DNA of 20,633 nucleotides from the IMG/VR virus record IMGVR_UViG_2606217106_000021, one strand, 5' to 3'. The position numbers were made by a program, and so were the translations under genes. This stretch comes from a virus (taxonomy: Duplodnaviria; Heunggongvirae; Uroviricota; Caudoviricetes). The notes beneath the pieces were generated by a model. It ran no database searches. It saw nothing but the letters and a program-made list of their open reading frames with translations, and was not told where the DNA came from. Below, in pieces: positions 1-20,633 of this stretch. Position 1 is the first letter of the stretch; the number at the start of each line of letters is the position of its first letter.

Positions 1-171
1 TCAATAAATCCCATCATTGCGATCAACCTCATCCTTAACCATTGATGCGAGCAGTTCTTCCAGTTTCTGCGCTGATAGCTTTACCTGGTGATCTTCAGCA
101 TCTTCCCGGGCTATTGTGGTTCGCGAAGTGGCTGATTTTGCTGACATCACCACAGGGGGCAGACGGACCAT
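1..171 (-). CDS. Hypothetical small protein (about 56 aa if started at MVRLPP...; the six-frame ORF runs 1..282)
   Basis: Minus-strand ORF ending in TGA at 1-3. An internal ATG at 169-171 is preceded by GGAGG about 10 nt upstream. The longer 93-aa version overlaps the hairpin after the tfa fragment, so the short start is preferred. No recognisable motif. Confidence 0.25.
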   Translation of the reverse strand: MVRLPPVVMSAKSATSRTTIAREDAEDHQVKLSAQKLEELLASMVKDEVDRNDGIY

Positions 172-237
172 TGAACCATGGCCTCCGGAACAAATAAGGG
201 CAAAAATAACAACCACTATCGAAAGCTCACAAACTAA

Positions 238-271
238 CCGCAGCACGTTCCTGCATACGACGTGTCTGCGG
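238..271. terminator. Imperfect hairpin (ccgcagcacg ... cgtgtctgcgg) just downstream of the tfa fragment; diverged copy of the hairpin at 1288-1320
   Basis: Inverted repeat read directly from the sequence; the arms carry a one-base bulge. It lies about 15 nt past the stop of the 286..555 ORF. Confidence 0.35.
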
Positions 272-285
272 CATAATCCCAATGA

Positions 286-555
286 TTACTCCCTGACAGG
301 ATTTGCAGGCCACTCAATATCAGGTGCAGTTGATGTATCAACACGATTCAACAATACCCGATATTTATTCCATGCCTCCAGCAACGATCTTTCTTCCTCC
401 GTTGCGATTTCCAGATCTACAGCATCCTGCAGTGGCGCAATATACTCACTGAATTCCTGGATGTAGAACTGTGTGGTGACGGTCTTCCAGCCATTCGGCT
501 CCTGCTGTATCGAAGCATACCAGGCTATTTCAATATCGCTATGCTGCGGCAGCAT
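286..555 (-). pseudogene. Tail fibre assembly protein C-terminal fragment (tfa remnant, 89-aa ORF)
   Basis: The C-terminal ~55 aa ([50 protein letters not shown]) are near-identical to the C-terminus of the full Tfa at 1335..1919. The N-terminal ~35 aa are unrelated. DNA of about 236-450 repeats about 1285-1500. Confidence 0.6.
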
Positions 556-611
556 TTAACCCCTTGTAATTCATCGCCATAATTGATTTAATTCACAAAT
601 AAAACTATAAC

Positions 612-1280
612 ATGGTGAAATCAATGAAAAAAAACACAGATGATGGGGCTAAAATTTACACACCACTTACCCTAAAGCTTTATGACTGGTGGGTTTTGGG
701 AGTATCAAATCGGCTTGCATGGGGATGTCCTACAAAGGAACACCTTCTTCCACACTTTCTGGAACATGTAGGTAACAACCATCTGGATATTGGTGTTGGA
801 ACTGGGTTTTACCTTACTCACGTACCTGAGAGTAGTCTGATATCTTTAATGGATTTGAACGAAGCTAGCCTGAACGCGGCATCTACAAGGGCTGGGGAAT
901 CAAAAATTAAACATAAAATTAGCCATGATGTTTTTGAACCTTATCCCGCGGCGTTACATGGTCAATTTGATTCCATTTCCATGTTTTACCTTCTTCACTG
1001 CCTGCCTGGAAATATATCTACAAAAAGCTGTGTAATACGCAATGCGGCGCAGGCCTTAACTGACGATGGAACTCTATACGGAGCCACAATTCTTGGCGAT
1101 GGAGTTGTGCACAATAGCTTCGGTCAAAAACTGATGCGCATTTACAATCAGAAAGGCATCTTTTCAAACACAAAAGATTCCGAAGAAGGCTTAACACATA
1201 TACTCTCAGAGCATTTCGAGAATGTTAAAACCAAGGTTCAAGGTACTGTAGTAATGTTTTCCGCTTCAGGGAAAAAATAG
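612..1280 (+). CDS. Class I SAM-dependent methyltransferase (222 aa), cargo gene
   Basis: Only long ORF on the plus strand. It has the SAM-binding motif I signature LDIGVGTGFY. The gene is AT-rich relative to its neighbours, has an AT-rich upstream region (556-611) and ends 8 nt before the 11-bp hairpin at 1288-1320. An alternative start is at 624. From memory, the DLP12 prophage of E. coli K-12 has a methyltransferase pseudogene (ybcY) between tfa fragments. Confidence 0.75.
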   Translation: MVKSMKKNTDDGAKIYTPLTLKLYDWWVLGVSNRLAWGCPTKEHLLPHFLEHVGNNHLDIGVGTGFYLTHVPESSLISLMDLNEASLNAASTRAGESKIKHKISHDVFEPYPAALHGQFDSISMFYLLHCLPGNISTKSCVIRNAAQALTDDGTLYGATILGDGVVHNSFGQKLMRIYNQKGIFSNTKDSEEGLTHILSEHFENVKTKVQGTVVMFSASGKK

Positions 1281-1287
1281 CATCCAA

Positions 1288-1320
1288 CCGCAGCACGTTC
1301 TTGCTTAAGACGTGCTGCGG
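1288..1320. terminator. Perfect 11-bp stem hairpin between the convergent methyltransferase (+) and tfa (-) genes; probable bidirectional terminator
   Basis: ccgcagcacgt-tcttgcttaag-acgtgctgcgg is a perfect inverted repeat. On the minus strand a T-run (tattttttcc) follows about 8 nt after the stem. Confidence 0.5.
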
Positions 1321-1334
1321 CATAATCCCAATGA

Positions 1335-1919
1335 TTACTCCCTGACAGGGTTCGTAGGCCACTCAATATCAGGTGCAGTTGATGTATCAACACGGTTCAG
1401 CAACACCCGATACTTTTTCCAGGCTTCCAGCAATGAGGTTTCTTCCTCCGTTGCAATTTCCAGATCTGCAGCATCCTGAAGCGGCGCAATATGCTCACTG
1501 GCTACCTGCATCAGGTTGTTTTTTGTTTCTTCCGCCTCCCGGATCCGGAACAGTTTTTCTGCTTCTGCATCTTTCACCCAGGTTGTGCCGTTCCACTTCT
1601 GAAACTCCCCTTCTGGCGATAACCAGGTAACATTTTCCGGTAATAAGCCGAGTTCAGAAATAAATAACGCGTCGCCGGAAGCTACGTCATAAACCGTTTT
1701 ACCCCGATGATCTTCAACGAGATGCCACGATGCCTCATCACTGTTGAAAACAGCCACAAAGCCAGCCGGAATATCTGGCGGTGCAATATCGGTACTGTTT
1801 GCTGGCAGACCTGTATGAGGCGGAATATATGCGTCACCTTCACCAATAAATTCATTAGTTCCGGCCAGCAGATTATAAATTTTTATGGTCCGTGCTTGTT
1901 CACTCATTCTGAATGCCAT
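1335..1919 (-). CDS. tfa: Tail fibre assembly protein Tfa (194 aa)
   Basis: Near full-length identity to lambda Tfa as I recall it ([78 protein letters not shown]...), same 194-aa length. Its ATG overlaps the stf stop as TAATG at 1917-1921. Confidence 0.93.
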
Positions 1920-4900
1920 TATGCAAGCCTCACAATATAGTTAAATGCGATGTTTTTGACGGTGTTTTCCGCGTTACCCGCAGCGTTAACGGTGATGGTG
2001 TGTCCATGTGAACCAATCGCAACGGAGTGCGTATGCGCACCAATACCTACAGTATGTGCATGTGCGCCAGAACTTGCTGCAGTACCAGACAGCGAGTGGG
2101 TATGAGCACCTGCTGACTGTGTCTGAATACGTTGATAATACGATCTATAGGAAGAAGTCCCCGGGCTTACTTGATACTGTGAATTCTGGACATAAGTGAA
2201 CCCACCGCCATCATAAAATGCTAACGCAGAACCGCCGCCTCCTGGCCAACGAATACCATTACCATGAGTATGAACACCGGCAGACCCCGTAGAGCCACTC
2301 AGACTGTGCGTATGCGCCCCGGTGTTATTCGTGGATTTAGTGCCGTAATCAAACGACGATGTGGTTTTCGTCCCCAAATCCGTACTGGATGCGCTGGCGC
2401 TGTGGGTATGCGATTTAATGCCGTCCTGTTCCTGAGACAATACGGCCCGACCACTGGCAGGTTTGCCCTTAATCGTCCAGCCACGCATATCAGGGATCAC
2501 GCCTGACGGATAAGCGGCTGCAAGTTTCGGGTAGGCAGATTTGTTAAAAGTCTGCCCCTGCATCAGGGCATAACCAGACGGAACGGTATCTGATGGCCAC
2601 GGGATTGGTGCGCCAACTGGGTAGCTTTCTGGTGGAAGATTTTTCGAGGTATAAACTTCTGCCCAGTCTTCCTCAAAACCATAACCGTCTCTTGAAGAAC
2701 GGTAGAACAGACCACGATTTCTGTAATGCGCCTTCATCTGCAGGGTCCGGCAACTTCCGACTCCGGTATAGAAGTTAACCAGAATATAGCTGTCGCCAGA
2801 GCGGGTGACATTGTAAGCGCCTGATTCGGCATTCCAGGGAACGGCTCCATCCGAATCCGCATAAGCCCCCGTCGAACGTCGGGCAAATGCACCAATATTT
2901 TCCGACGTGAGGTTAATATCCGCCGAGCCATCAAACTTAACACCGTTAATTTTTGGGGCTGCCGCAAGTTTCGTCGCGGTATCGGCGTTCCCCTTCAGTG
3001 CCCCGGTGATCCCATCAGTAACAGACAACGGACCTGAAATAGTCCCTCCAGTCGTTGGCAGCGCTCCAATATCTGATGGTGTAGGTTTCTGATGTGAGCT
3101 ATACATCGTATAAACAACACCACCGGTAACGCTGGAAGGCTTACTCGCTGAATATGTTGGCGAGGTATAAATAGAAACTGACGCATTTGTAGTACAATCC
3201 CAATGGATATTTACACTCGTCGCATAATTGCCAATCTCAACGTAAATATCATATGTATCGCCGGATGTGTTGATCCAGGCGAAATTCGTTAATCCGACGG
3301 CTGTACGCTTCCACAAAGCTCCGGTAATCCCTTTGGGCTTTCCATTGCCTGCTCGTAGAACCAGTTCTGAAATGCCTGCCTGCTGTGGGGAGCCGACGTT
3401 GTAACCAGCGCCACCAATCAATGCGATGTAAACGATGGAACTCGCTTGTGGCATGGTAACCGTTGCCAGTTTGAACCACCCTGCCCCGCCAGAGAAAGAG
3501 ATCGTTACTGAATTTAAAGTGCCAATATCTTTCGGTGTTAATGTTATATCCGCAGTCAGTGCTTTCCCGTTAACTTTTCGGTTAGATGGTACCCTGCCAT
3601 TCGCATTGTCATTCGCTGCTTTAACTGCCTTCGGTGTCGCGGCAAGCGTTTCAGATGTGCTGTTGGTCGCACTGCTGAGCTGTACTATCCCCTTTTTCGT
3701 CGTACTTGCATCCTCAAGCGCCACGGCGGATGCAATATCCTCTGCCCGTTTTGCCGCTGTCTCGGCGCGCGTTGCCGCGGATTCCGCCGTACTTTTGCTC
3801 TGTGCTGCCGCCGTCGCACTGCCAGCTGCCTCTGTCGCCTTCGTGGATGCTGTCGTGGCGCTGCCCTTCGCTGCTGACGCCTGTCTGGTCGCCTCATCTT
3901 TTGAAGCTGACGCCGATGATGCCGATGACGCCGCCGAACTGGCGGACGATGCGGCAGCCGTTTTTGAGGATTCTGCGCTGGTTTCCGACGCTTTCGCGTT
4001 CGTCTCGGATGTCTTCGCTGCGGAAGCAGACCTTGCTGCTGCACTGGCCTGTTCAGTGGCTTTGCCAGCCTTCGTTGTGGCTGTTGAAGCGGATGATGCG
4101 GCGCTTTCTGCCGATTTTCCGGCGGCGGTGGCACTGGCTGAGGCCTGCCCGGCACTTGTTGACGCGGCACTGGCAGATGATGCAGCCGCTGTTTTTGAGC
4201 CTGCCGCAGCTGAGGCACTCTGTCCCGCTGCCGTTTCAGAAGACCTGGCGTTCGTCTCGGACGTCTTTGCCGCCTTCGCGGAATTTCCTGCCGCCGTTGC
4301 CGAGGAAGCTGCACTACTGGCACTTGATGATGCATTCGTTTCTGAAGATTTCGCTGCCTCTTTTGAGGCCGCCGCACCCCGTGCCGAGGTGGCAGCTTCT
4401 GACGCCTTCGTGGTCGCTGTGGATGCAGAAGTGGCTGCCGATTTTTGTGATGCTGCGGCATTCGTTTCTGACGTTTTCGCGGCACTGGCGCTGGTAGCTG
4501 CCGCGCTTTTTGATGACTCTGCAGCAGCAGCACTTTTTGCTGCTTCACGGGCCTTTGTCGATGCCGTTCCTGCGCTGGAAGACGCTGACTGAGCCGACGA
4601 CGCGGCCTGTCCGGCTGGCGTGCTGGCGGCACGTGCTGAGGCTGCAGCATCGGTTGCATGAGTTGCCGCCTCGCTGGCTGATGCACTGGCATCGCTGGCT
4701 GATTTTTTCGCGGCTGCCGTATTCTGTGCAACCGCGGAGGCGTTACGTGACACCTCTTCCACCATCTGCTCAAAGCGGCGCAGTGCCTCCGGTCGGACAT
4801 CATCCTCCGTCATGGCACCGAGAAAATCATTCAGCGTACCTGGTCTGGAACCTTCATAGACGGTAATGGTCCCGGCATGTGAAGGCGGAAAACCTTCAAC

Positions 4901-5089
4901 CAGCAGGGTGACGCTGTACTGACCATGCTCAACATCCATGCTGTAACGTCCGGCTTCATCCGGATTTTCAGAGGCCACCGTGTTCACCACCACCGTGCTG
5001 CTGGTTCGTCTGGCCTTCAGCACAATGGTGCAGTTCTGTACTGGTTTTCCTGTGCCATCTTTAAGCACGCCAGAAATTTTTACTGTCAT
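1919..5089 (-). CDS. stf: Side tail fibre protein Stf (1056 aa), unsplit
   Basis: The N-terminal ~120 aa ([22 protein letters not shown]...[14 protein letters not shown]) and the C-terminal ~250 aa (HxH repeats, ...[24 protein letters not shown]) match lambda Stf as recalled. A long Ala/Ser/Thr-rich repetitive central region accounts for the spurious antisense ORFs. The middle of the protein (about residues 480-800) does not match my recollection of lambda. Confidence 0.9.
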
Positions 5090-5103
5090 ACTTTTCCACC
5101 AAT

Positions 5104-5135
5104 AAAAAAAGCCCGCAGCAGTGACGCCACGGGCT
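5104..5135 (-). terminator. Hairpin plus T7 run immediately upstream of the stf start (minus-strand sense)
   Basis: Minus strand reads agcccg-(14-nt loop)-cgggct followed by ttttttt, ending about 15 nt before the stf ATG. The stem is only 6 bp with a large loop, so it is of modest strength. Confidence 0.4.
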
Positions 5136-5240
5136 TCAGGACAGTGTAACTTTACGTTTCCTCAAACGCAGTTCACCCCATAAAGTGGATGAACCTGCGT
5201 ATCATAACAATATTTACAGAAGATAAATCGGCGTCTGTTG

Positions 5241-6164
5241 TCAGAAACGGTAACGGGAAGAAGCCACCACTCCTTCAGACAACGCCTGTGCATCCTTAAT
5301 GGCTCCATAGCAACGAATCCCCTCTGCTGCCGTATTCCCCAGCACCAGCGTGCCCTCCGGCAGATAACGTTTTTCGGTACCGTCCTCTGCCACATAAGAC
5401 GTTTTCGCTACCACAATGGCCAGATCGCCGTAATACCCCTTGAAGGATACCACTGCGCCCAGATCTTTCACTGCCGTTTCGAGTTGTGAATTTGAACCGC
5501 GACGGGTATCCATTTTTTCGCGGAAAAGCTTAAAGCCATTCAGCAGACGCCAGACGGTACCGTCCATAATGGCAATATTCACAAGACCACTGGCCTGATC
5601 ACAGAAAAGGTCGATATCATATGTCGGGTCGAACGTGTCACGATCCTGTTTTGACCACTCCTTACCGCTACCTTGTATGATGTTATTCTTCGTCGATCGG
5701 CCAAAATCGACTTCAATTTTCTCGAACTGGTCTCCTTCCATCGTATATTTGCCATACAGCACGGCATTCACCGCCTGCATTTCTTCCACCTGCACAATAG
5801 CGTGCTCTTCCTGTTTGAGGTTATCAGTGATGATACGCAGACGACGGTAGGCCGGGTCGTTCAGCTGAGCCGGATCTTCACCGGGAAGGCGCTCAACCGC
5901 CTGCTGGTAATTAAATTCGTGTTTCGGCTTGACGTAGCCAGGACGCAACACGCGGGTTTCACCACCACGATGGCGCAGCACTTTTCCTTCAACGATCGGG
6001 GAGACATAGGCCGCCACCGGCGTTTTTCCGGTAATTTTGTCCAGCATCACCTCTTCGGTGTGGAAATTCACCGTACGGCGGAAAAACAGCTCCAGAAATA
6101 GCGCACGGAATTTAACTTTTTGTTCGGTATAACCGAGTAACTGGCGGGTCGTAAACAATCCCAT
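5241..6164 (-). CDS. E: Major capsid protein E, C-terminally truncated (307 aa, lambda E is 341 aa)
   Basis: Matches lambda E over most of its length (YVSPIV.G.V.R.RGG, PGYVKPKHE, QVEEMQAV.AVL.GKYTM, DTRRGSNS.LETAVKDLG, GDVAIVV). It ends ...SSRYRF* where lambda continues for about 35 more residues. Confidence 0.85.
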   Translation of the reverse strand: MGLFTTRQLLGYTEQKVKFRALFLELFFRRTVNFHTEEVMLDKITGKTPVAAYVSPIVEGKVLRHRGGETRVLRPGYVKPKHEFNYQQAVERLPGEDPAQLNDPAYRRLRIITDNLKQEEHAIVQVEEMQAVNAVLYGKYTMEGDQFEKIEVDFGRSTKNNIIQGSGKEWSKQDRDTFDPTYDIDLFCDQASGLVNIAIMDGTVWRLLNGFKLFREKMDTRRGSNSQLETAVKDLGAVVSFKGYYGDLAIVVAKTSYVAEDGTEKRYLPEGTLVLGNTAAEGIRCYGAIKDAQALSEGVVASSRYRF

Positions 6165-6605: not shown

Positions 6606-6944
6606 TCATGGCATGGCCATGAGCATTTTCACGTCCGCATCACCGTCTGCTGACGTCTGTGACACGCCACCCCGCACCGCTGCCGGTGAATGATTCGCCA
6701 TGAAATGTTCAAACAGGGCGGTTGTGGATGCAGAGACCGGTTCGGCCTTACCTGATCCCGCAGCCAGCACAGCCCGGGCGTTCTCCACGGTCATTCCCGG
6801 GCAGGCCGCCAGTTTTTCAGCCTGCGCTTCTGCCCCTTTTGCCTCATCCAGGGCCATGATCTGATCACGAAGTGAGGGCCCGGCATCCGCCAGTGGTGCA
6901 GCCGCCAGGATCGGGCGGGCTTTTTCCACCGTCATCTCCGGCAT
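6606..6944 (-). CDS. Nu3-like scaffolding segment (112 aa), in a different frame from C
   Basis: Contains PGMTVEKARPILAAAP and a second PGMTVENARAVLAAGS copy, resembling the lambda C/Nu3 C-terminal region (ETPGMTVKTARRILAAAP). It overlaps the C stop by 13 nt and is out of frame with it. Confidence 0.55.
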   Translation of the reverse strand: MPEMTVEKARPILAAAPLADAGPSLRDQIMALDEAKGAEAQAEKLAACPGMTVENARAVLAAGSGKAEPVSASTTALFEHFMANHSPAAVRGGVSQTSADGDADVKMLMAMP

Positions 6945-7546
6945 CGCCGCCAGCGTTGACCGGCATAGCTGACATGGCTCATCATCACGCCAATGGAGCC
7001 GATACGGGATGTCTGGGTAACCAGCCGTCGGGAGCAGGCCGACGCCAGCAGCATGGCTGCAGAACAGGCCGTGTCATTGCACAGTGCCCAGACCGGCTTC
7101 TGCTGACGGAGGCGGTAAATCATGTCAGCGCAGTCAAACGCGCCGGCGGCCTGCCCGCCCGGACTGTCAATGTCCAGCAGTACGCCCCGCACCTGGCTAT
7201 CCGCCATTGCCTGCTGAAGACAGGCGACAATACCGTCATAGCCTGTCATTCCGGAAAATGGCCGCATACCACCCAGCCGGTGCACCAGCGTGCCGGTCAC
7301 CGGCAGTACAGCAATACCGTTCACCACCCGGTAAACACGGGCCGGTCGTTTACCTCCGGCCATGTACTCGTCCGTTTCAGCCAGCATCCCGGGAGCATCA
7401 AGCTGTACCTGCTGTTGCGGTACCGAAAGACTTGCTGCCCCCATCTCGCGCCCCAGCGCGCAAAAGAAAACCCGCGCATAGGCGGGCTCCAGAAGCAGCG
7501 GTTCATTGAATGCTGCTGCAATAATGTGTGAAAGATTACGTCTCAC
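6932..7546 (-). CDS. C: Head maturation protease C, protease domain only (204 aa, lambda C is about 439 aa); probably disrupted
   Basis: The N-terminus (AFNEPLLLEPAYARVFFCAL ... GMTGYDGI ... GVLLDIDSPGG ... AGAFDCAD ... KPVWAL ... RRLVTQT.R.GSIGVM) matches lambda C (S49-type). The ORF stops where lambda C continues for more than 200 residues. Confidence 0.7.
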   Translation of the reverse strand: MRRNLSHIIAAAFNEPLLLEPAYARVFFCALGREMGAASLSVPQQQVQLDAPGMLAETDEYMAGGKRPARVYRVVNGIAVLPVTGTLVHRLGGMRPFSGMTGYDGIVACLQQAMADSQVRGVLLDIDSPGGQAAGAFDCADMIYRLRQQKPVWALCNDTACSAAMLLASACSRRLVTQTSRIGSIGVMMSHVSYAGQRWRRCRR

Positions 7547-9128: not shown

Positions 9129-9331
9129 AACCTCACTCCCAGCGGACGACGGCGACGTCGGGTTGTCCCCAGTACCGACTCCGCATCATTGATCGCCCGG
9201 TTAAGCTCATCCAGAGAAGCCGCCGTATATTCAATTCTGCGACCATCTTTCTGGACAGACACCACCCGTTTACCGGTTAATAAATCAAGGCGCGCCTGAC
9301 GCAGCGCCTGTAGTTCAGCGACTGTAACCAT
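9125..9331 (-). CDS. W: Head-tail joining protein W (68 aa)
   Basis: [23 protein letters not shown] matches lambda W ([23 protein letters not shown]). Its stop overlaps the B start as ATGA. Confidence 0.8.
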
Positions 9332-11408
9332 TCACTCCTCCGGACAGCTTCGCTGCCAGTTCTTTAAGGGTTGGCCGGGTCGTCTCTTCTTCCCGGGATT
9401 TTGCCAGTACAGCCAGATCAAGCTGCCAGCGTTGCACGGACACACGTAATGCCGCATAGGCATACACCAGGCAGTCCAGCGCTTCGTTACGCCGCTTTTT
9501 GTTATCCCACAGCAGACGCATCTTTCCTTTTTCCCACTTCTCCACAAGCTCTTCCGCGACCAGTTGCTGCGCCTCTGTCTGCGAAAAAATCTCCGGATCA
9601 TCAGGAAAATGGATGGCATACGACGTGGCTTCATCCGCAGGAGTGGGATCGGCTTTCATACGGGCATAGAGAATTTCTTTTGCGGTGTCCGTCCCCACTT
9701 CACACAGATACACGCCCCGCTGATTGCGGGTTTTCGGCATGGTGATCACCGGCTTGCCATAGACAGATGCGCCTTTTACCGGCAGCACCCGGAAAACACC
9801 GTGTTTTTTTGACCTCTGATAGACAATTTCACCATCGATCCCCCCGGTGTCCCAGCAGACACGGGAAATGGTCATTTCGGTTCCGTCTGCATGGCAGTAT
9901 TTTTTGTTGATCGCCGCATCCACACGTAACAGCGTCTCTTCCTCATCGGGACGGCCCATAATGATGATTTTATCCACCAGAAAAGCTTCCTCTCCCGGTG
10001 CCCATCCCCAGACATACATCTCAAAACGGTTTCGCTGCGAGTCAATGCCCGCCGTCAGATAAACCACCCGGGCTGGCACCGCCGCCGTGTAATGCACGAC
10101 CTTATCCATCAGTACCTGGTGATCGAGTTTTTCGCCCACGGCCTCTTCAGAAGCCACATCGGATGCTTTCGCGATTTCAGTTTTCACAGCATCAAGATGT
10201 ACGGGTGATATATCAGGGTATTTACGCTGCAGTGTCTGAGGGACACGGACAAGGATCCCTGATATATTCTGTGCCACTCGCTGAAAGATGTAGGTAAATA
10301 ACTCCGTCTCGAGGACAAGGCCTTCCTCACGAGCATTTTTCAGCTCCTGTGCATCGGCCTGTGCCTTCGTCAGTCGGTAACGTTCGTAATCAATGGTGCC
10401 GGGCTGAAGGTCTGATTCGCTGGCAGCCCTCAAATCCTCGATCTCTTTACGGAGTTTTTCGTTTTCAATATCAGCTTCCCTCTGCGCATACCACTGAATG
10501 GCAGCAGTTGTATCAAAAACTGATTCAGTCCCTTTCCCTCCACCAGAAACTAGTGGTAACCCCTGACTCTGCCAGGCGGTGACTGATGCCGGACTTCCAC
10601 CGTGACACTGCGCCGCCAGCCCGGCAAGGTCAGCACGGAACTGCTGTACCATTGCAAGAAATGCTGCTGGCTGCTGGGCGTAACTGGCATTCGTCATATC
10701 GAATTCCCCCTGCATCCAGCATATCGCCAGCAAAACGTTTTTCGGGTTTTTCTGCAATGCTGCCTTCGTGCGGAAAAGCAGATCCTGATATAACGGCTTA
10801 CCCACTCCCCAGCGAGCCGAATCCTGACTGGCCCCCGTGGACTCGCTGAATGTCCCCTCCGTGCCCTGGGTGAATGCCGAACCACCACGACAGCATGGTA
10901 CCAGCAGGATCCCCGCGTTATTAGGGATATACGGAAGCAGTTTTTTGGCAATATGTAAGCCCTGTCCGACACAGCCGTACTGCCCTTTGCTCAGGTCAGC
11001 CCGGGGATGGTTAATCGTACTCATATCCTGAACATCATGCAGACAATGGTCAGCAGGAATGATGTCGTTAAATACGCATACTTCACCACCGGGAGTCACT
11101 GTGTTACGACGGGCCAGTTGCTTAATGCGCGGATGGGGCGCATCGTATGAATCCGGCAGCGGAAGCCCTTCACCGTAAGCCATGGCATTGGACTGCCCGG
11201 CCAGTACGATGACGTAGTACCAATCCGGCTCAGTTGCACCACTGACCACCACATCACCTTCTGCTGCAATCGCCTGCATCAGGGTATAAGGGGTTATGGC
11301 CACCGGACTACCAAACGGCTGCCAGCCCTCCTTCAGTTTTTGTGTCAGTCGTTTCGCAAGGTCTGACGGCGATACCGCCCTGACCACGTCATAGTGTTTA
11401 AATGCCAT
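9315..11408 (-). CDS. Chimeric ORF (697 aa): DUF1737-like/SASA-type esterase-like N-terminal region joined to the terminase large subunit (gpA) C-terminal domain
   Basis: Residues about 430-697 match lambda gpA's C-terminal region ([64 protein letters not shown]). Residues about 60-300 carry a [11 protein letters not shown] motif typical of SASA/SGNH sialate O-acetylesterases, which I associate with prophage nanS-p genes. A coiled-coil-like linker (about 310-420) matches neither. No terminase ATPase N-terminal region and no upstream nu1 are present. Confidence 0.7.
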
Positions 11409-11630: not shown

Positions 11631-11635
11631 GCCCA

Positions 11636-11885
11636 CAAGAAAACCCCTCCGGAGAGGGGCTAAAGCCGCGTATCTGTATCATCATGCACATGGTGCCGGG
11701 TGCCTCCCGGTGAGTTCAGCCCGGTGCCACTAAACCCGCGTCATTCTCGTTTTGATAATCAGAGATTATACCGTCACCAGTCGCCCCTCCGCTCAGGGGG
11801 ATTCACCATGCGAAATTTTTTTAACAAATGCCCAGTCTGACAGGCAACTGTCAACTTACTGAATTGTGAGCAACATAGCATTTAA
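11636..11885. repeat. Repeat unit A of a diverged direct repeat (partner at about 12122-12340)
   Basis: Shares identical blocks with unit B: aaaacccctccggagaggggct, catggtgccgggtgcctcccggtga, cccctccgcNcagggggattcaccatg, ttttaacaaa, gtcaac, ctgaattNtgag. Sequence between the blocks has diverged. Confidence 0.7.
11637..11660 (-). terminator. Minus-strand rho-independent terminator (repeat unit A)
   Basis: Minus strand reads cccctc-tccg-gagggg followed by ttttcttg. It is back to back with the plus-strand terminator at 11601-11630. Confidence 0.55.
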
Positions 11886-11934: not shown

Positions 11935-12121
11935 TGGAAGGATAGCGGTCATGTGATGCCGGTTTCCCGGTAACTCAGCACCGGTATCTGAGTCAACGTT
12001 TTCTCTACTGGGTCATTTCCGATACGCCCTGCCTGCTGACAGGCTTTCATCACATCTGAAAATATAGCACCCTGACTGATACTGTAGTACCTAAGGTTCC
12101 AGAAACTGTGATGTATCCGGC

Positions 12122-12148
12122 ACAGAAAAGCCCCTCCGGAGAGGGGCT
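12122..12148 (-). terminator. Minus-strand rho-independent terminator (repeat unit B)
   Basis: Minus strand reads gcccctc-tccg-gaggggc, a perfect 7-bp GC stem, followed by ttttctg. Confidence 0.6.
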
Positions 12149-12340
12149 GGAGAGTGGCGCTATGTGCCATTGCATGGTGCCGGGTGCCTCCCGGTGAATT
12201 CAGTACCAGCACCTGAATCCGCGATTATCCCATATACCTACTCGCTGATTGCCCCTCCGCACAGGGGGATTCACCATGCCAGTTTCTTTTAACAAACTCC
12301 CCGCAAACCAGACAACAGTCAACCGCCTGAATTATGAGAC
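12122..12340. repeat. Repeat unit B (partner of 11636-11885)
   Basis: Same conserved hairpin blocks as unit A. The hairpin cccctccgcacaggggg differs from unit A only in the loop (a versus t). Confidence 0.7.
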
Positions 12341-12344
12341 ATTT

Positions 12345-12368
12345 AAAAAAAAGCCCGCAAAAGCGAGC
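12345..12368 (-). terminator. Minus-strand terminator-like hairpin just downstream of the tRNA cluster
   Basis: Minus strand reads gctcgc-tttt-gcgggc (6 bp with one G-U pair) followed by a T8 run. Confidence 0.5.
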
Positions 12369-12383
12369 CAGGGAAAATAAGTG

Positions 12384-12460
12384 TGGCGCGTTGTACTGGA
12401 TTCGAACCAGTGACCGATTGCTTAGAAGGCAATTGCTCTGTCCGGCTGAGCTAACAACGC
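12384..12460 (-). tRNA. argO: tRNA-Arg (anticodon UCU)
   Basis: Reverse complement folds as a cloverleaf: acceptor GCGTTGT/ACAACGC, T-loop GGTTCGAATCC, anticodon loop CTTCTAA, 3' GCCA. The symbol is by analogy with the ileZ-argN-argO cluster of Stx-type lambdoid phages and is not verified. Confidence 0.85.
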
Positions 12461-12473
12461 ATGATGCAGATAA

Positions 12474-12550
12474 TGGACCGCCATCGGGGACTTGAACCCC
12501 GCGCAGCCAGCTTCGAAGGCTGGCGCTCTTTCCTGATGAGCTAATGGCGG
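12474..12550 (-). tRNA. argN: tRNA-Arg (anticodon UCG)
   Basis: Reverse complement: acceptor CCGCCAT/ATGGCGG, T-arm CGGGG-TTCAAGT-CCCCG, anticodon loop CTTCGAA, 3' TCCA. Symbol by analogy only. Confidence 0.8.
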
Positions 12551-12557
12551 TATGTGA

Positions 12558-12633
12558 TGGTGGCCCTTGCTGGATTTGAACCAGCGACCTGGCGATTATG
12601 AGTCGCTCGCTCTCACCACTGAGCTAAAGGGCC
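12558..12633 (-). tRNA. ileZ: tRNA with CAU anticodon, Ile2 (lysidine) type
   Basis: Reverse complement GGCCCTTTAGCTCAGTGGTGAGAGCGAGCGACTCATAATCGCCAGGTCGCTGGTTCAAATCCAGCAAGGGCCACCA closely resembles E. coli ileX-type tRNA (anticodon loop CTCATAA). Symbol by analogy only. Confidence 0.8.
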
Positions 12634-12661
12634 GAGCCAAAAAATAATAATCAGATGAAAA

Positions 12662-13375
12662 TCAATAATCAAGCCCTTGCCTGGATACATATCTGTCTGG
12701 CGGGAAGCCATAATAGCGGTGAAATACAGAAATAAAGTAGGACCTGCTTGAATAACCGCATTTTTCTGCTATAGCCTGTCCATATCCATGCCGGGAACAT
12801 AACATATTTACAGCAACACGCATCCGCTCTTCCAGCAACAAGCGACTGAACATGCCCCCTTCATTTTTCAGTTTTGTCTTTAACAAACTCTCACTCATAT
12901 GCAACTGTAGAGCAATCGCACCAAGCGTCCAGCTTGCTGATATATCTGTCTGAATTATCGCCCTGACTTTGGCACTTATGCTGGATAAACATCCACTTAA
13001 AAACAATGACATCCGTTCATCTGTTTCAAACAGAGACAGGCAGGCCATCATAAGAAACATATCCGTGGCCTCTCCGGAAAATCCCTGGCTGGTAATTAAA
13101 GCCGCAGCCAACGCAGGATTGTTGGGTTCCAGCAACAGGTAAAGCGGAATGTCAGTCAGACGAGTCCTCGTCAGCTTATGCTGACTTTCCAGATATTGAC
13201 TTACGACGGATTCGCTTATATCGACAATTTTAACTTTGCCATAATGCATAAGGAAAAGCTCCCTGATGCATTTGGTGGCCAGAACAACTGAGCCTGGCTT
13301 AAGTGACAACGTATCCTTTTCAAGAAAAATATTAATTGGGGAGCAAACCATGATAACTGAACAGACAACAGCCAT
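12662..13375 (-). CDS. AraC/XylS-family transcriptional regulator, AppY-like (237 aa)
   Basis: C-terminal AraC-type HTH (AIAEKCGYSSRSYFISVFHRYYGFPP). The N-terminus MAVVCSVIMVC...KIVDI resembles AppY (MDYVCSVVFIC...RIVDI, recalled from memory). AT-rich; the 13376-13509 gap upstream could hold its own promoter. Confidence 0.85.
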   Translation of the reverse strand: MAVVCSVIMVCSPINIFLEKDTLSLKPGSVVLATKCIRELFLMHYGKVKIVDISESVVSQYLESQHKLTRTRLTDIPLYLLLEPNNPALAAALITSQGFSGEATDMFLMMACLSLFETDERMSLFLSGCLSSISAKVRAIIQTDISASWTLGAIALQLHMSESLLKTKLKNEGGMFSRLLLEERMRVAVNMLCSRHGYGQAIAEKCGYSSRSYFISVFHRYYGFPPDRYVSRQGLDY

Positions 13376-13495
13376 TATAATTTTACTTTCATTAGCAATT
13401 GGTTAGCTCAATTATAGCCCCAAAAGGTAAATTATCATCAACACATAAGCAAAGGACTGACAGGTGTCGCCCCCCCACCAGCCGCCCATTCACCA

Positions 13496-13523
13496 CAAAT
13501 AAAAAGCCTTCAGGACTGAAGGC
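13496..13523 (-). terminator. Minus-strand terminator overlapping the stop of the 65-aa ORF
   Basis: Stem gccttca/tgaaggc with a ggac loop; on the minus strand it is followed by tttttatttg. Confidence 0.45.
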
Positions 13524-13707
13524 GTCTGTAACAACCGCACTGATAGTCTGCCAGACCCGCCATAACAAGCTGGGTCAGTATTAACTGGCAGCGTTCGCGT
13601 GAAAGGTAAGTATTCTGCGCAATCTCCCCGACTGTCGCCGGTTCGGTAACGCTTAATTCATCAAACACAACTCTGGCGGTTTCTGTCATATCCTGCTGTT
13701 TCAGCAT
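13510..13707 (-). CDS. Hypothetical small protein (65 aa), possibly a DNA-binding protein
   Basis: ORF with its own terminator hairpin at its 3' end. I did not recognise a family; the idea of a small helix-turn-helix fold is only an impression from composition. Confidence 0.4.
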   Translation of the reverse strand: MLKQQDMTETARVVFDELSVTEPATVGEIAQNTYLSRERCQLILTQLVMAGLADYQCGCYRRLQS

Positions 13708-13831: not shown

Positions 13832-13853
13832 AAAAAACCCGCTCAGTGGCGGG
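13832..13853 (-). terminator. Minus-strand rho-independent terminator after the ~205-aa cargo gene
   Basis: Minus strand reads cccgc-cactga-gcggg followed by ttttttg. Confidence 0.55.
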
Positions 13854-13985
13854 TTTAAGTTGTGTGGCGAAGTAACCACTCTTAACACACTAATAGCATT
13901 TTTGTTATAACACAAGTAGCTCATTCAGTATTTTTAGAATCTTGACTTTCTTAAGCACGGCGAACTCTGAATACCAAACATAAAA

Positions 13986-14603
13986 TCAATTATCTTCCAG
14001 GCCGGATGCTATCAACGAAAGCCTCTCAAAAAACGCTGTAGCAGCCTTGTCCAAAGTTGAATAAGTACTGTATTCTCCGTGTTCGGGACCAACCACTACC
14101 CATGGTCGTCTTTTTGGGATTCGGGACTTCTCAGAAATCACTGTTCCAGATATACCAATATCAATTGTTACACCTGTTATTATTTTCTCTTCATCTCTTT
14201 CCCTGAACTCAATTGCCATAAATGCCGTTTTTTTTCGTTTCCCGTTTTTAAAAAAATCAAATAAAGCAAAGCGATGCTCATTAAAATCAACACCCCATCG
14301 TCCTTCAGGATAAAGGGCATGAAAGTTGTCATTTACGCTCTGCATCGTCTCATAAGCTTTAACTTCTAAATCTCCATAGTGCATAGATACCGCGCAGGAG
14401 TCACTGGGTAACTGTATTTTCCCAAGATTGAAAACCTTTACTGCTCCAGAACTATGGCATCTTGCCCGCAATTTATCCCCATTTATACTAATCGGAGAAA
14501 TATTCCTTAATGTTCCGGGCTGGCTCCCTCCTAAGTAAACGACTGTTAAAGATTGCTTATTTTCAATTGCATCAACTAATACATGCTCTACATTTTTATC
14601 CAT
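13986..14603 (-). CDS. Hypothetical protein (about 205 aa from MDKNVEH...; six-frame ORF extends to 14630), unrecognised family
   Basis: AT-rich ORF directly downstream of Q. GGGAGG lies 5 nt before the ATG at 14601-14603. Its own terminator is at 13832-13853. No motif recognised. Confidence 0.6.
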   Translation of the reverse strand: MDKNVEHVLVDAIENKQSLTVVYLGGSQPGTLRNISPISINGDKLRARCHSSGAVKVFNLGKIQLPSDSCAVSMHYGDLEVKAYETMQSVNDNFHALYPEGRWGVDFNEHRFALFDFFKNGKRKKTAFMAIEFRERDEEKIITGVTIDIGISGTVISEKSRIPKRRPWVVVGPEHGEYSTYSTLDKAATAFFERLSLIASGLEDN

Positions 14604-14678
14604 AATAACCTCCCAATGAACAGGTATCATCAGGAGGTTATAATAAAATATGATTATTTACTTTGATTGAATTTATTA

Positions 14679-15065
14679 CTATATGTAACAATCAATTTCT
14701 AAAGATACCCCCAACATTGCCAGACAACCGTCAATAAACCCTTCAGCTTTCTGCAGTCTGATAACAACCTGATTAAGTGATATCCCCAGTTTTACCCCCA
14801 ACACCCGTAATGTAACCCCATACACATAATACATTTCCAGTAATTCGTATTGATACGGTTCCTTTTTCTTAAGAACTGTCATCGCAGAGCTAATGATCAG
14901 GCCATCGTCATCGCTACATTGCGGGCGGGATTTTACTTTCGAAGGAATTAATCCCTTAAAACCTGCAGCAACAGATGACCATTCCACATCCTCGTGATTA
15001 TTTGCCACCCATGCCCCCCAACGTTCAAGAACCATTTGAATATCACGCATCAACTTTCTCCACAA
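14679..15065 (-). CDS. Late-gene antiterminator Q (phage 82/21 type, QuuD-like; 128 aa)
   Basis: MRDIQMVLERWGAW...GFKGLIPSKVKSRPQC...LQKAEGFIDG resembles my recollection of E. coli QuuD. An alternative start is at M6 (15050). Confidence 0.8.
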   Translation of the reverse strand: MWRKLMRDIQMVLERWGAWVANNHEDVEWSSVAAGFKGLIPSKVKSRPQCSDDDGLIISSAMTVLKKKEPYQYELLEMYYVYGVTLRVLGVKLGISLNQVVIRLQKAEGFIDGCLAMLGVSLEIDCYI

Positions 15066-17761: not shown

Positions 17762-18411
17762 GCCGCCATCTCCCTGACCAGTTTTTCCGCCTGCTGGCGA
17801 ACCTGCGCCAGAAACGCCTCACCACATGCCTCAAGTTCATCGCGCCCTATGTAGCTGATTGCCGGTCCCTTCCAGGTCTTGTCGAAAACAGCAATAGCAC
17901 CAGCGAAGAAAGCACCTGTTGGCACCTGCTTTTCGTCTTTCGGGATAAACCAGGCAGGCAGTTCAAAACCAATACGCCCGCGAATAAAAGCAATATGATC
18001 TGCATCTTCCGGCCACCACACTTCGCTGGTGGCAGCTTTGATCAGGAAAACATAGCGCCCGCCTTTATCACGCATGGCACTGGCATGTTTCATGATGTAA
18101 CGCATGCCGGTGATGTATTGCCCCTCATGCTGACTGGCGCGGCTGTACGGGGGATTACCAAAGGCAGCACCTTTAAGCTCCGCAAGACGTTCAGACCAGT
18201 CATGCGCCAGCGCGTTGTCTTCCGCAGTGTAATAAGCGGCACATTTGGCGTTATCACCATCAGTGAACAGATCCAGAACAAACGGGCCAAACAGGGTGTT
18301 AATTCCCCAGAAAATGTTGTCCGGCGTGCGCCACTGATCGCCCACTTCCTTCAGTTCATGGGCTGGTTTGTTCCGCAGCTCCACCAGCGCCTGGCAATAT
18401 TTATTACTCAT
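17758..18411 (-). CDS. Phage Dam-type DNA N6-adenine methyltransferase (about 217 aa; six-frame ORF extends to 18444)
   Basis: Catalytic FGNPPYSR (NPPY) motif. The start is probably M12 (MSNKY...), which forms a TAATG overlap with the upstream gene stop at 18411-18413. Confidence 0.8.
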   Translation of the reverse strand: MSNKYCQALVELRNKPAHELKEVGDQWRTPDNIFWGINTLFGPFVLDLFTDGDNAKCAAYYTAEDNALAHDWSERLAELKGAAFGNPPYSRASQHEGQYITGMRYIMKHASAMRDKGGRYVFLIKAATSEVWWPEDADHIAFIRGRIGFELPAWFIPKDEKQVPTGAFFAGAIAVFDKTWKGPAISYIGRDELEACGEAFLAQVRQQAEKLVREMAA

Positions 18412-18905
18412 TAAGCCCCCACGTAATTCCCTGACAGATACCACTCTTCACCCGATGCAGCGCGCTTGCTGCTTTTCCGTAAGCACCGCTCACGATGCGC
18501 CAGAAAATTGTTTCGTTCTGGCTGGGAGTGGCTTTCACGGAATGCCTCCATCCACACCGTTGCAGCTCGACGGAATAAGCCCCTGGACTCCAGTTCTTCC
18601 GCCTGGCGAGTCAGGCACAAAATCACCTGCGGGTCGTTAGTGCCGACACAGAAATTGCGCACAGGTCTGGTTTCACGAACTGGTTGTGGTTCCGGCTCCT
18701 GTGCTCTCTCAGTCAGGCGCGGGAAATGTCTGCGTGTATCTCCTTCACAACGGTGAGCCACACGCCCACTCTGACGTAACTTGCTTGCTGACTGCAGAAC
18801 GCGCTGCCGTGAGTAACCTGCAAAAGCATCCGCAATGTCTCCGGAAGTACACCCCGGATGGGCTTCAATGAATTTCTGAACTTCATTCAAAAGACTCATG
18901 ATCAC
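18411..18905 (-). CDS. Hypothetical protein (164 aa) with a possible PerC-like motif
   Basis: AEELESRGLFRRAATVWMEAF resembles the PerC/Pch family signature as I recall it (LE..G.wRRAA..W). Translationally coupled on both sides. The family assignment is uncertain. Confidence 0.45.
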   Translation of the reverse strand: MIMSLLNEVQKFIEAHPGCTSGDIADAFAGYSRQRVLQSASKLRQSGRVAHRCEGDTRRHFPRLTERAQEPEPQPVRETRPVRNFCVGTNDPQVILCLTRQAEELESRGLFRRAATVWMEAFRESHSQPERNNFLAHRERCLRKSSKRAASGEEWYLSGNYVGA

Positions 18906-19720
18906 CCCCTGAATCCTTCCGGGATCTGGCTGTAGTCCACGTTGTCGTAACTGGCTTTGAAGTACGGGTCCTCGCGTCTGGCTGCAGATACCGCAGGAAC
19001 TTCCCAGGATTCTTCGAAATGACGATCCGGACCAAAGAACGTGACAGCCTGTTTCACAAATTGTGTGCCGCTGTTACCCATCGCAGATACCCAGCCCGCG
19101 TAGCGTTTCACACCTTCCAGCATGGTTTCGGGGTTTACCCCCTCATTCAAACGGGCTTTCCAGGCTTTGAAGGCTGCAGATTTTGAATTGCCACCAGCAC
19201 GTTTGGGGTATGCCAGCCATGCCTGCTCAAACTCCGGAGAGTATTCCGGTCGGTTTGAACGAACTCGCACAGACTCATCAGCAGATTCACCAACAGCTAT
19301 TGGTTCATTGACTGGTTCTTTGACTGGTTCAAAAGAGTGACTGGTTCTGGGTGAATCTCCTGCACTACCCCCTGGTGCAACTCCTGCACTACCTGGTGAA
19401 TTTGCTGCACCAGATAGTGAATTATTTGCACTACCCCCTAGTGAATCTCCTGCACCATCCAGATGAAGGAGATAGATATTACTTGAGTTACCTTTTTCAC
19501 CTTTCCGGGTGACTTTTTTTACCAGCCCGGACTCACAGAGGGCCGCAATATGATTCATCACAGAACGTTTGCTAATCTCGCACTGATCAGCGATATGCTG
19601 ATAGCTGGGCCAGCACTCACCCTGATCGCTGGCATTATCAGCCAGCTTAATCAGAACCAGTTTTCGCAATGGATTTCCCACTCGAATTTTCATCGCTTTA
19701 ACCATCAACTCCATACTCAT
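18902..19720 (-). CDS. Replication initiator (O-like) with N-terminal HTH and internal iterons (about 272 aa from MSMELM...; six-frame ORF extends to 19759)
   Basis: N-terminal LVLIKLADNASDQGECWPSYQHIADQCEISKRSVMNHIAALCESGLVKK is typical of phage replication-initiator HTH domains. The gene contains a direct-repeat array at 19309-19460 followed by an AT-rich stretch. GGAGG lies 7 nt before the ATG at 19718-19720. Confidence 0.65.
   Translation of the reverse strand: MSMELMVKAMKIRVGNPLRKLVLIKLADNASDQGECWPSYQHIADQCEISKRSVMNHIAALCESGLVKKVTRKGEKGNSSNIYLLHLDGAGDSLGGSANNSLSGAANSPGSAGVAPGGSAGDSPRTSHSFEPVKEPVNEPIAVGESADESVRVRSNRPEYSPEFEQAWLAYPKRAGGNSKSAAFKAWKARLNEGVNPETMLEGVKRYAGWVSAMGNSGTQFVKQAVTFFGPDRHFEESWEVPAVSAARREDPYFKASYDNVDYSQIPEGFRG
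19309..19460. repeat. Candidate replication origin: three TGACTGGTTC repeats and five ~21-24 bp iterons (GTGAAT.T.CTGCAC.A.CCC) inside the O-like gene
   Basis: Direct repeats read from the sequence at about 19309, 19321, 19338 (10-mers) and 19351, 19374, 19395, 19417, 19441 (iterons). An AT-rich segment at 19461-19500 follows. Confidence 0.6.
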
Positions 19721-19941
19721 GCAGCACCTCCGAGATGCTTCATGTTTTTTCCGGAGCAAAAGGCTATAAGCGGCATACTGACGCGGTAATTACGGCCCAG
19801 CGGTTCACAAATCACCTTCTGACATTCACGGTCAACCAGGCTAACACGTAGAACATGCCCTGCAGGCGTGGTGTACCACTGACCCGGACGAGGACAACAG
19901 AAAGTATGATTGGTAAACCGTTTGAAAATATTCCGGATCAT
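19717..19941 (-). CDS. Hypothetical small Cys-containing protein (74 aa)
   Basis: Its start overlaps the Rha stop and its stop overlaps the O-like start, both as ATGA. No family recognised. Confidence 0.4.
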   Translation of the reverse strand: MIRNIFKRFTNHTFCCPRPGQWYTTPAGHVLRVSLVDRECQKVICEPLGRNYRVSMPLIAFCSGKNMKHLGGAA

Positions 19942-20483
19942 TTACGCCCCCTTACCTCTGAAGGGTTCAGCGACAAATTTATGAGACTGGCCAGTAGCGC
20001 CGCGTCGTTGATGCGGTCATACAGACTTACAGCCAGCGGGGATTCGGCTTTTGCCAACATGGGATAAAGCTGCTGCAGCCAGACCTTGTGGATTACCGAC
20101 AGGTGGGAGTAAAGCACGCTGGCGTTATCTGCGGCATCGCTCAGCGTGGATGGCTTTGAAAGCAGTTTTTCCATCTGGTTAAAGGCATTTATGTATGCCT
20201 CTTTGAACCGGGCAGCACGTTTACCAGTGAAGCCCATGGCAAGAAACGCAAAACCGTCGCGGGTGATTTGGTAACAAGGGAGTTTGCGGCCTGATGCGTC
20301 GGTGTATTCACTTAACACAAAATTGTGTTCAGTAAATTCAGCGGAACATTCGAGGTTTCTAATTCTATCTAAAACCCGCTCATGCCGTTTAGTAAAGTAA
20401 TTAGCTACTGCAAGAGATGTGGTGACAACGCGACCATTGATAATCGTGATTTCAGGGTGAGATTGGGTTGGGAGAGTAGTCAT
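19938..20483 (-). CDS. Rha-family phage regulatory protein (about 181 aa from MTTLPTQ...; six-frame ORF extends to 20624)
   Basis: ITIINGRVVTTSLAVANYFTKRHERVLDRIRNLE fits the Rha N-terminal domain pattern (..V.TSR.IAE.FGKRH.NVLR.I.NL). The start is uncertain because the window ends at 20633. Confidence 0.7.
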   Translation of the reverse strand: MTTLPTQSHPEITIINGRVVTTSLAVANYFTKRHERVLDRIRNLECSAEFTEHNFVLSEYTDASGRKLPCYQITRDGFAFLAMGFTGKRAARFKEAYINAFNQMEKLLSKPSTLSDAADNASVLYSHLSVIHKVWLQQLYPMLAKAESPLAVSLYDRINDAALLASLINLSLNPSEVRGRK

Positions 20484-20633
20484 GGTGACAGCCCCTATGT
20501 TGAATTCAATGAACTCACCACCAAGGCTTTCCACGACCATATAGGTGGTGAGACGTACAGGGGTGGAAATACCGGTCAACATAGAACCCGGCCCAACCGA
20601 AGTTGGCCCTGCACGCCCCACCATAATTTGGGC

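Follow-up and report, generated by a model that had tools for sequence, protein, structure and literature searches.

Among the prophage-borne AraC-like regulators of E. coli O157, the closest described system is the pair PsrA and PsrB, whose targets and association with prophages were already described between 2011 and 2015. Published work reports that PsrB contacts the gadE promoter and the hdeA promoter (-132 to -45) directly, makes cells more resistant to acid at pH 2.5-3.5 and aids their passage through the mouse stomach. Both PsrA and PsrB raise GadE and YhiF, by which LEE type III secretion is repressed indirectly (PMC10877973, PMC8565820). Deletion and overexpression experiments with acid-resistance readouts were carried out for PsrA and PsrB in 2011 and 2015; deletion of psrA leads to more secretion, and loss of psrB in EDL933 changed secretion little, with effects seen when the gene was supplied in trans or induced (PMC10877973, PMC8565820). 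Thus, native psrB expression may be low. In recent transcriptomes psrA is expressed, and psrA and gadE transcripts move together (PMC13502914).

Several other regulators resemble the Psr proteins. PatE (z0321, OI-8, EDL933; WP_000246059.1), also an AraC-like protein from a prophage, activates hdeA and gadE and can be aligned with Psr over its full length. GadW, YdeO and AppY of E. coli K-12 belong to the same AraC subfamily of ~240-250 aa, with an N-terminal 'M..VCSVI' and a double HTH, and all three feed gadE and the AR2 pathway, which AppY activates directly along with gadE (PMC10057817).

The window considered here is a stretch of 20,633 nucleotides (IMG/VR record IMGVR_UViG_2606217106_000021). 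On its minus strand, at 12662..13375, it encodes an AraC/XylS-family regulator of 237 aa with an ATG start that is 100% identical to the TOE17 protein WP_000301785.1 and shares 234/237 residues (98.7%) with PsrB of EDL933 (z2104, OI-57/CP-933O; WP_000301797.1). We consider it very probable that the window carries an allele of PsrB type, from the Psr (for prophage-encoded secretion regulator) family found on lambdoid prophages of E. coli, and that it plugs into the host GAD acid-stress circuit, a function transferred to the window allele from the 98.7% identical protein, with the details of mechanism taken from reviews. Recognition of PsrB here implies that the prophage remnant probably still feeds the GAD circuit, and contributes to LEE control as well if a LEE is present. 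The first-pass annotation had proposed a prophage regulator of the kind that reshapes stress and virulence regulons of the host; the proposal stands in that the protein is a PsrB allele, but the matter was not open, PsrA and PsrB having already been characterized.

An intact gene in a defective prophage

Both the frame at 12662-13375 and its assignment to the AraC family were called correctly in the first-pass annotation. Pfam places HTH_AraC (E 2.4e-13, in two stretches; 50.3 bits against a cut-off of 26.6) and HTH_18 (E 5.8e-10; 39.8 bits against a cut-off of 33.6) on the protein, together spanning residues 155-230, and the two HTH motifs in the C-terminal ~100 aa that define AraC/XylS proteins are present. 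The DNA-binding domain of GadX (3MKL) aligns with the protein over 100 residues (E 7e-19). The Pfam matches and this alignment show an intact HTH, where a disrupted one had been named as evidence against a regulator. Compared with PsrA, residues 1-125 give a dN/dS of 0.47 and residues 126-237 one of 0.31; compared with PsrB the value is ~0.3, and across both domains overall it lies between 0.27 and 0.55. The gene is intact and under purifying selection.

According to megablast, psr is common in E. coli prophages. It is present in 726/5426 complete E. coli genomes (~13%), 595 of which hold an allele at least 99% identical to that of the window and 130 only an allele at 90-95%. All but one of the 1324 psr places in complete genomes (1323) are chromosomal, and a prophage setting between Q and tRNAs was seen at the window and at every related locus inspected, a subset of the 1324. 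At least 1000 contigs encode the exact protein WP_000301785.1. A close homolog is present in one of 50,697 phage records (phiSTEC1575-Stx2k, 91.6%), and the other phages have relatives at no more than 40% identity.

The prophage setting that had been proposed, here a lambdoid one, is evident from the neighbors of psr, with RusA, a DUF968/HNH protein and a KilA-N-type regulator encoded upstream of a Q antiterminator gene, and portal, capsid and tail fiber downstream of it. The host prophage is a deleted, defective remnant that must have lost its lysis cassette and the ATPase domain of its terminase; tail genes other than those of the tail fiber/assembly stretch are all missing from the window. 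The whole window was found as a contiguous stretch in none of the complete E. coli genomes, and there is no type III effector gene within its 20.6 kb.

Such a prophage might be thought to hold psr as intact yet silent cargo, kept off for example by H-NS and making no natural contribution to the host, a reading that we regard as unlikely. The GC content of psr, 43.8% against 51.3% for the window (as implied by the earlier description of the gene as AT-rich), and its richness in rare codons would suit silence, but dN/dS values of 0.3-0.5 and an upstream region with hardly any variation speak for a function that has been kept. Likewise, the prophage lacks the lysis cassette, the terminase ATPase and tail genes, yet from psr to the early region the sequence matches that of an intact relative at 99.94% identity despite the deletion of neighboring phage functions, and the spread of the exact allele (at least 1000 contigs) and of the gene (13% of complete genomes) also speaks against dead cargo. 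The small effect of psrB deletion on secretion in EDL933 (PMC10877973, PMC8565820) has to be set against psrA, which is measurably expressed and regulated (PMC13502914).

Several other features of this prophage were observed in the window. An ORF of 697 aa (9315-11408, minus) is an in-frame fusion of three parts, namely an N-terminal NanS-p esterase portion (DUF1737 plus partial SASA, residues 1-262), the terminase small subunit Nu1 (residues 266-419) and, at the end, the nuclease domain of terminase gpA (residues 422-656). There is an abrupt junction at ~5250: bases 1-5252 (methyltransferase, tail-fiber assembly, tail fiber) are 100% identical to E. coli 55989, from base 5248 on, the matches are to other prophages, and truncation is seen in the major capsid gene at 5241-6164. 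A match to the Rfam sRNA IS009 (226 bits; 1378-1576, minus) lies inside the tail-fiber assembly gene (1335-1919). Near the other end, an ORF at 18411-18905 was assigned to the PerC family (yfdN-like) by correspondence with a related locus and is not a pch gene; the O157 psrA and psrB loci carry PerC/Pch genes. A C4 antisense RNA (Rfam RF01695, 82 bits; 20541-20628, minus), an element familiar from P1/P7-type immunity, lies across the 5' end of a regulatory gene of the Rha/Ash family at 19938-20624 (minus).

Place among AraC-like regulators and the two O157 copies

Three substitutions (A103V, H196Y and I202V) separate the window protein from PsrB of EDL933 OI-57; none of the three is in a recognition helix, and both recognition helices are the same in the two proteins. 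H196 is the state found in PsrA, and the I/V202 change is conservative. PsrA itself (Sakai ECs_1087, Sp4) is 90.7% identical to the window protein; of the 22 substitutions between the two, residues 1-125 hold 17. Identities then fall to 37% for the PatE candidate of EDL933 OI-8, 33-35% for GadW, 29-31% for YdeO and 27-29% for AppY, and GadX and EnvY reach ~40% in the C-terminal domain only; by BLASTP, GadW, YdeO and AppY stand at 35%, 31% and 28.6%, the multiple alignment giving identities 1-2 points below those of BLASTP. In a neighbor-joining tree the window protein pairs with the OI-57 copy of PsrB, and the Psr clade is sister to the PatE clade, with GadW/AppY, GadX/EnvY and YdeO outside. 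Database members of the Psr clade reach down to ~55% identity and are all from E. coli or Shigella.

Orthology with the named relatives was considered and rejected in each case. PatE (z0321/WP_000246059.1), at 37% identity, forms a separate group in the sister clade; it is 247 aa long, and it differs from the window gene in the kind of prophage remnant that carries it and in its position there. Scores against the NCBIfam equivalogs for YdeO and GadX (NF007407, NF007432), the nearest NCBIfam families, were 108.5 bits against a cut-off of 348 and 87 bits against a cut-off of 500, respectively; both are far under the cut-offs, and thus the protein is neither YdeO nor GadX. AppY, at 27-29% identity, is not the closest paralog and belongs to a separate clade at another prophage position.

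The resemblance to AppY from which the first-pass annotation started survives as distant full-length homology (28.6% over 238 aa, E 4e-34), but not as a label, given 98.7% identity to PsrB, and the phylogeny that it had suggested against AppY, GadX, YdeO and PatE put Psr beside PatE and not AppY. Its functional analogy holds despite the wrong family label, because AppY too activates gadE directly. The examples that it had mentioned in passing came nearer, the protein itself being a Psr and PatE its sister clade. Could the window gene nevertheless be a regulator of AppY type, with operons of anaerobic and stationary-phase growth (hya, appCBA) as its main targets, like AppY of DLP12? AppY is also prophage-borne, and its outputs overlap in part through direct activation of gadE and AR2 (PMC10057817), but PatE, GadW and YdeO are at least as close to the window protein as AppY is, and AppY lies at the far, ompT end of DLP12 and not between Q and tRNAs (GadW and YdeO are chromosomal), so that we judge such a role very improbable.

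The nearest solved full-length structures, both by sequence (Rns, E 5e-16, residues 110-230) and by Foldseek, are those of Rns, CsvR and ToxT, which have ~20% identity to the window protein. An AlphaFold model built with a 12-sequence family alignment is of low confidence (pLDDT 62.8, pTM 0.40); Foldseek ranked the same three proteins at the top for it (E ~5e-9, TM ~0.3), and only the HTH domain superposed well (GadX, TMt 0.62). Because of these pLDDT and TM values, we draw no inference about a fatty-acid pocket or the N-terminal domain.

The PsrB name also depends on which O157 copy is which. Published accounts give psrB as z2104 in OI-57, 90% identical to psrA (PMC10877973, PMC8565820); OI-57 spans 1,849,324-1,929,825, and the EDL933 gene at 1,905,274 falls within it. 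O157 genomes contain exactly two psr copies at the megablast level, 90.7% identical to each other, which fits the published 90% between PsrA and PsrB and thus supports the PsrB identity of the OI-57 copy. The second copy, found with the O55:H7 allele as query in the yccA-adjacent prophage of EC4115 (protein WP_000261909.1), corresponds to Sakai ECs_1087 in prophage Sp4, and the group behind the definition of the Psr family gives psrA as 'ecs1087, Sp4' in a 2026 paper (PMC13502914). Reviews put psrA (z1789) in OI-50/CP-933N, the potC prophage (PMC10877973, PMC8565820), but tblastn detected no Psr homolog at the potC prophage in either corrected EDL933 (1,620,001-1,670,000) or Sakai Sp6. We therefore reject this placement, the second copy being in Sp4 instead.

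Sakai psrA is annotated from an internal start as a protein of 195 aa (6803-7390 of the extracted locus), and the full 237-aa ORF beginning MVVVCSV is intact there; the many family entries of 195 aa in protein databases probably derive from this annotation. Names of the exact proteins in databases are all generic and without Z numbers, RefSeq calling the window protein 'helix-turn-helix domain-containing protein'. PsrA and PsrB go unnamed because of this generic RefSeq name and the 195-aa Sakai start. The value of the identification lies mainly in annotation, since a characterized regulator of virulence and acid resistance that ~13% of complete E. coli genomes carry is left without its name.

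Locus arrangement, predicted signals and the tRNA cluster

At the Psr loci checked for gene order (the window, psrB of EDL933, psrA of EC4115 and Sakai, and O55:H7), the order is Q, variable cargo, a 65-aa ORF, psr and then ileZ-argN-argO-type tRNAs. The Q antiterminator gene of the window is at 14679..15065 (minus; Pfam Phage_antitermQ, E 1.5e-47; phrog_79). The psrB locus of EDL933 matches the window in the length of psr, the 65-aa ORF, the tRNAs and the upstream control region, but it has two tRNAs where the window has three and another Q-type gene (DUF1133). The psrA locus has the same gene order and a near-identical promoter region; it differs in carrying a CPBP protease after Q in place of the phrog_8498 ORF and in a frameshifted 65-aa ORF.

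In the window, the slot between Q and psr, which is variable and holds the CPBP protease at psrA loci, is occupied by an AT-rich cargo ORF of unknown function at 13986..14630 (minus; phrog_8498, E 3e-126). It has a GC content of ~38-41% and is the richest in the window in ATA/AGA/AGG/CGA (8.4 per 100 codons), and its translation likely starts at the ATG at 14603, with GGGAGG ahead of it, for a product of 205 aa. A hairpin (ACCCGC..GCGGGT) followed by a T-run, read directly at ~13836-13862, and a second terminator-like hairpin from a scan (13798-13777) lie 3' of this ORF. The 65-aa ORF that accompanies psr is at 13510..13707 (minus; phrog_331, function unknown). Its homologs are labeled 'TrmB family transcriptional regulator' by PGAP; the window and EDL933 OI-57 have the ORF intact, and it is frameshifted at the psrA loci of EC4115 and O55:H7 (3667-3863 and 19667-19863 of the extracted loci). 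Neither the cargo ORF nor the 65-aa ORF has a match in Pfam or PADLOC, and a defense-system role for psr with these adjoining ORFs was ruled out, PADLOC having given no match.

The end of the 65-aa ORF coincides with a hairpin, GCCTTCAGTCCTGAAGGC, followed by a T-run (13506..13523, minus), which is kept in 4/4 aligned alleles and, being terminator-like, would separate psr from upstream transcription. Between this hairpin and psr, we predict a sigma-70 promoter-like site, ATGATA-16-TATAAT (13411..13438, minus; 10/12 matches), 36 nt upstream of the psr ATG. The promoter scan of the region gave 8 sites against 6.3 expected in shuffled sequence, which is no enrichment, and thus the call rests on position and conservation: the ~90 bp 5' of the ATG show one substitution across the window, psrB of EDL933, psrA of EC4115 and O55:H7, whereas the N-terminal coding halves of the same four alleles differ by ~10%. 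A G-run at ~13470-13480 (minus), ~40 nt ahead of the psr -35, differs between alleles in both length and sequence and is the sole variable patch of the otherwise invariant control region (alignment columns 86-97).

On the other side of psr, the neighboring tRNA cluster reported earlier is confirmed, three tRNAs beginning 28 nt 3' of the gene on the same strand. ARAGORN and Rfam identify a tRNA-CAT of ileZ type (12558..12633, minus; ileZ1 in Sakai), and these programs and the Sakai annotation identify a tRNA-Arg(TCG) of argN type (12474..12550, minus) and a tRNA-Arg(TCT) of argO type (12384..12460, minus). The CAT tRNA is called Met by ARAGORN and ileZ/tRNA-Ile in RefSeq records; an ileZ-type tRNA reads AUA after lysidine modification. 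A second promoter-like site, TTGATT-17-TATTAT (12644..12672, minus), overlaps the psr stop codon, is invariant in the 4 aligned alleles and appears placed to drive the tRNA cluster. Directly 3' of the last tRNA, a terminator-like hairpin with a T8 run (12352..12369, minus) is likely the 3' end of the psr/tRNA unit.

Judging from this arrangement, psr would be a self-contained 'moron', with a conserved sigma-70-type promoter of its own, 36 nt before the start codon, to drive its transcription in the lysogen. By analogy with the published proteins, its C-terminal double HTH would bind AT-rich sites in the hdeA (-132 to -45) and gadE promoters; GadE (and YhiF) would rise, turning on glutamate-dependent acid resistance and the HdeAB chaperones, and in LEE-positive strains type III secretion would thereby be repressed. 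The net effect would be a prophage cargo gene that feeds the host GAD acid-stress circuit. On prophage induction, antiterminated late transcription could also reach psr through the intervening terminators, because psr lies downstream of Q on the same strand. A further, doubtful possibility is that such Q-dependent read-through couples induction to a burst of host acid-resistance expression.

That psr instead acts primarily on the phage (the tRNA/sRNA cluster or late genes), with incidental effects on host GAD genes, might be suggested by its strictly conserved position between Q and tRNAs at every locus examined and by the tRNA promoter-like site overlapping its stop codon, but this is hardly credible given that there is no evidence for any phage target, that most lambdoid/Stx phages with the same tRNA cluster lack psr (a close homolog in 1/50,697 records), as does the O157 potC prophage, and that the published targets are chromosomal (PMC10877973).

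The psr gene is rich in rare codons, with ATA used for 5/15 Ile and AGA/AGG for 6/13 Arg, far more than in the phage structural genes of the window, and the adjoining ileZ-type and argO-type tRNAs read these ATA and AGA/AGG codons. The psr cassette and the sequence upstream of it to the end of the window are 99.94% identical to the intact relative, with lysis, terminase and tail genes deleted. This combination of rare-codon use and near-identity despite the loss of phage genes allows the reading that psr, the 65-aa ORF, the three tRNAs and STnc100 sRNAs form a self-sufficient, selectively retained cassette in which translation of psr depends on the tRNAs, although we regard this as a doubtful proposition.

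Two copies of the STnc100 sRNA (Rfam RF02076; 161 and 136 bits) are found on the minus strand at 11631-11840 and 12118-12308, in the interval from the esterase remnant to the tRNA cluster. According to a 2026 preprint, STnc100 is related to the PasD sRNAs, and both PasA and PasD sRNAs are associated with esterase genes. At the TOE17 locus, an iraM gene lies between the tRNAs and the esterase gene.
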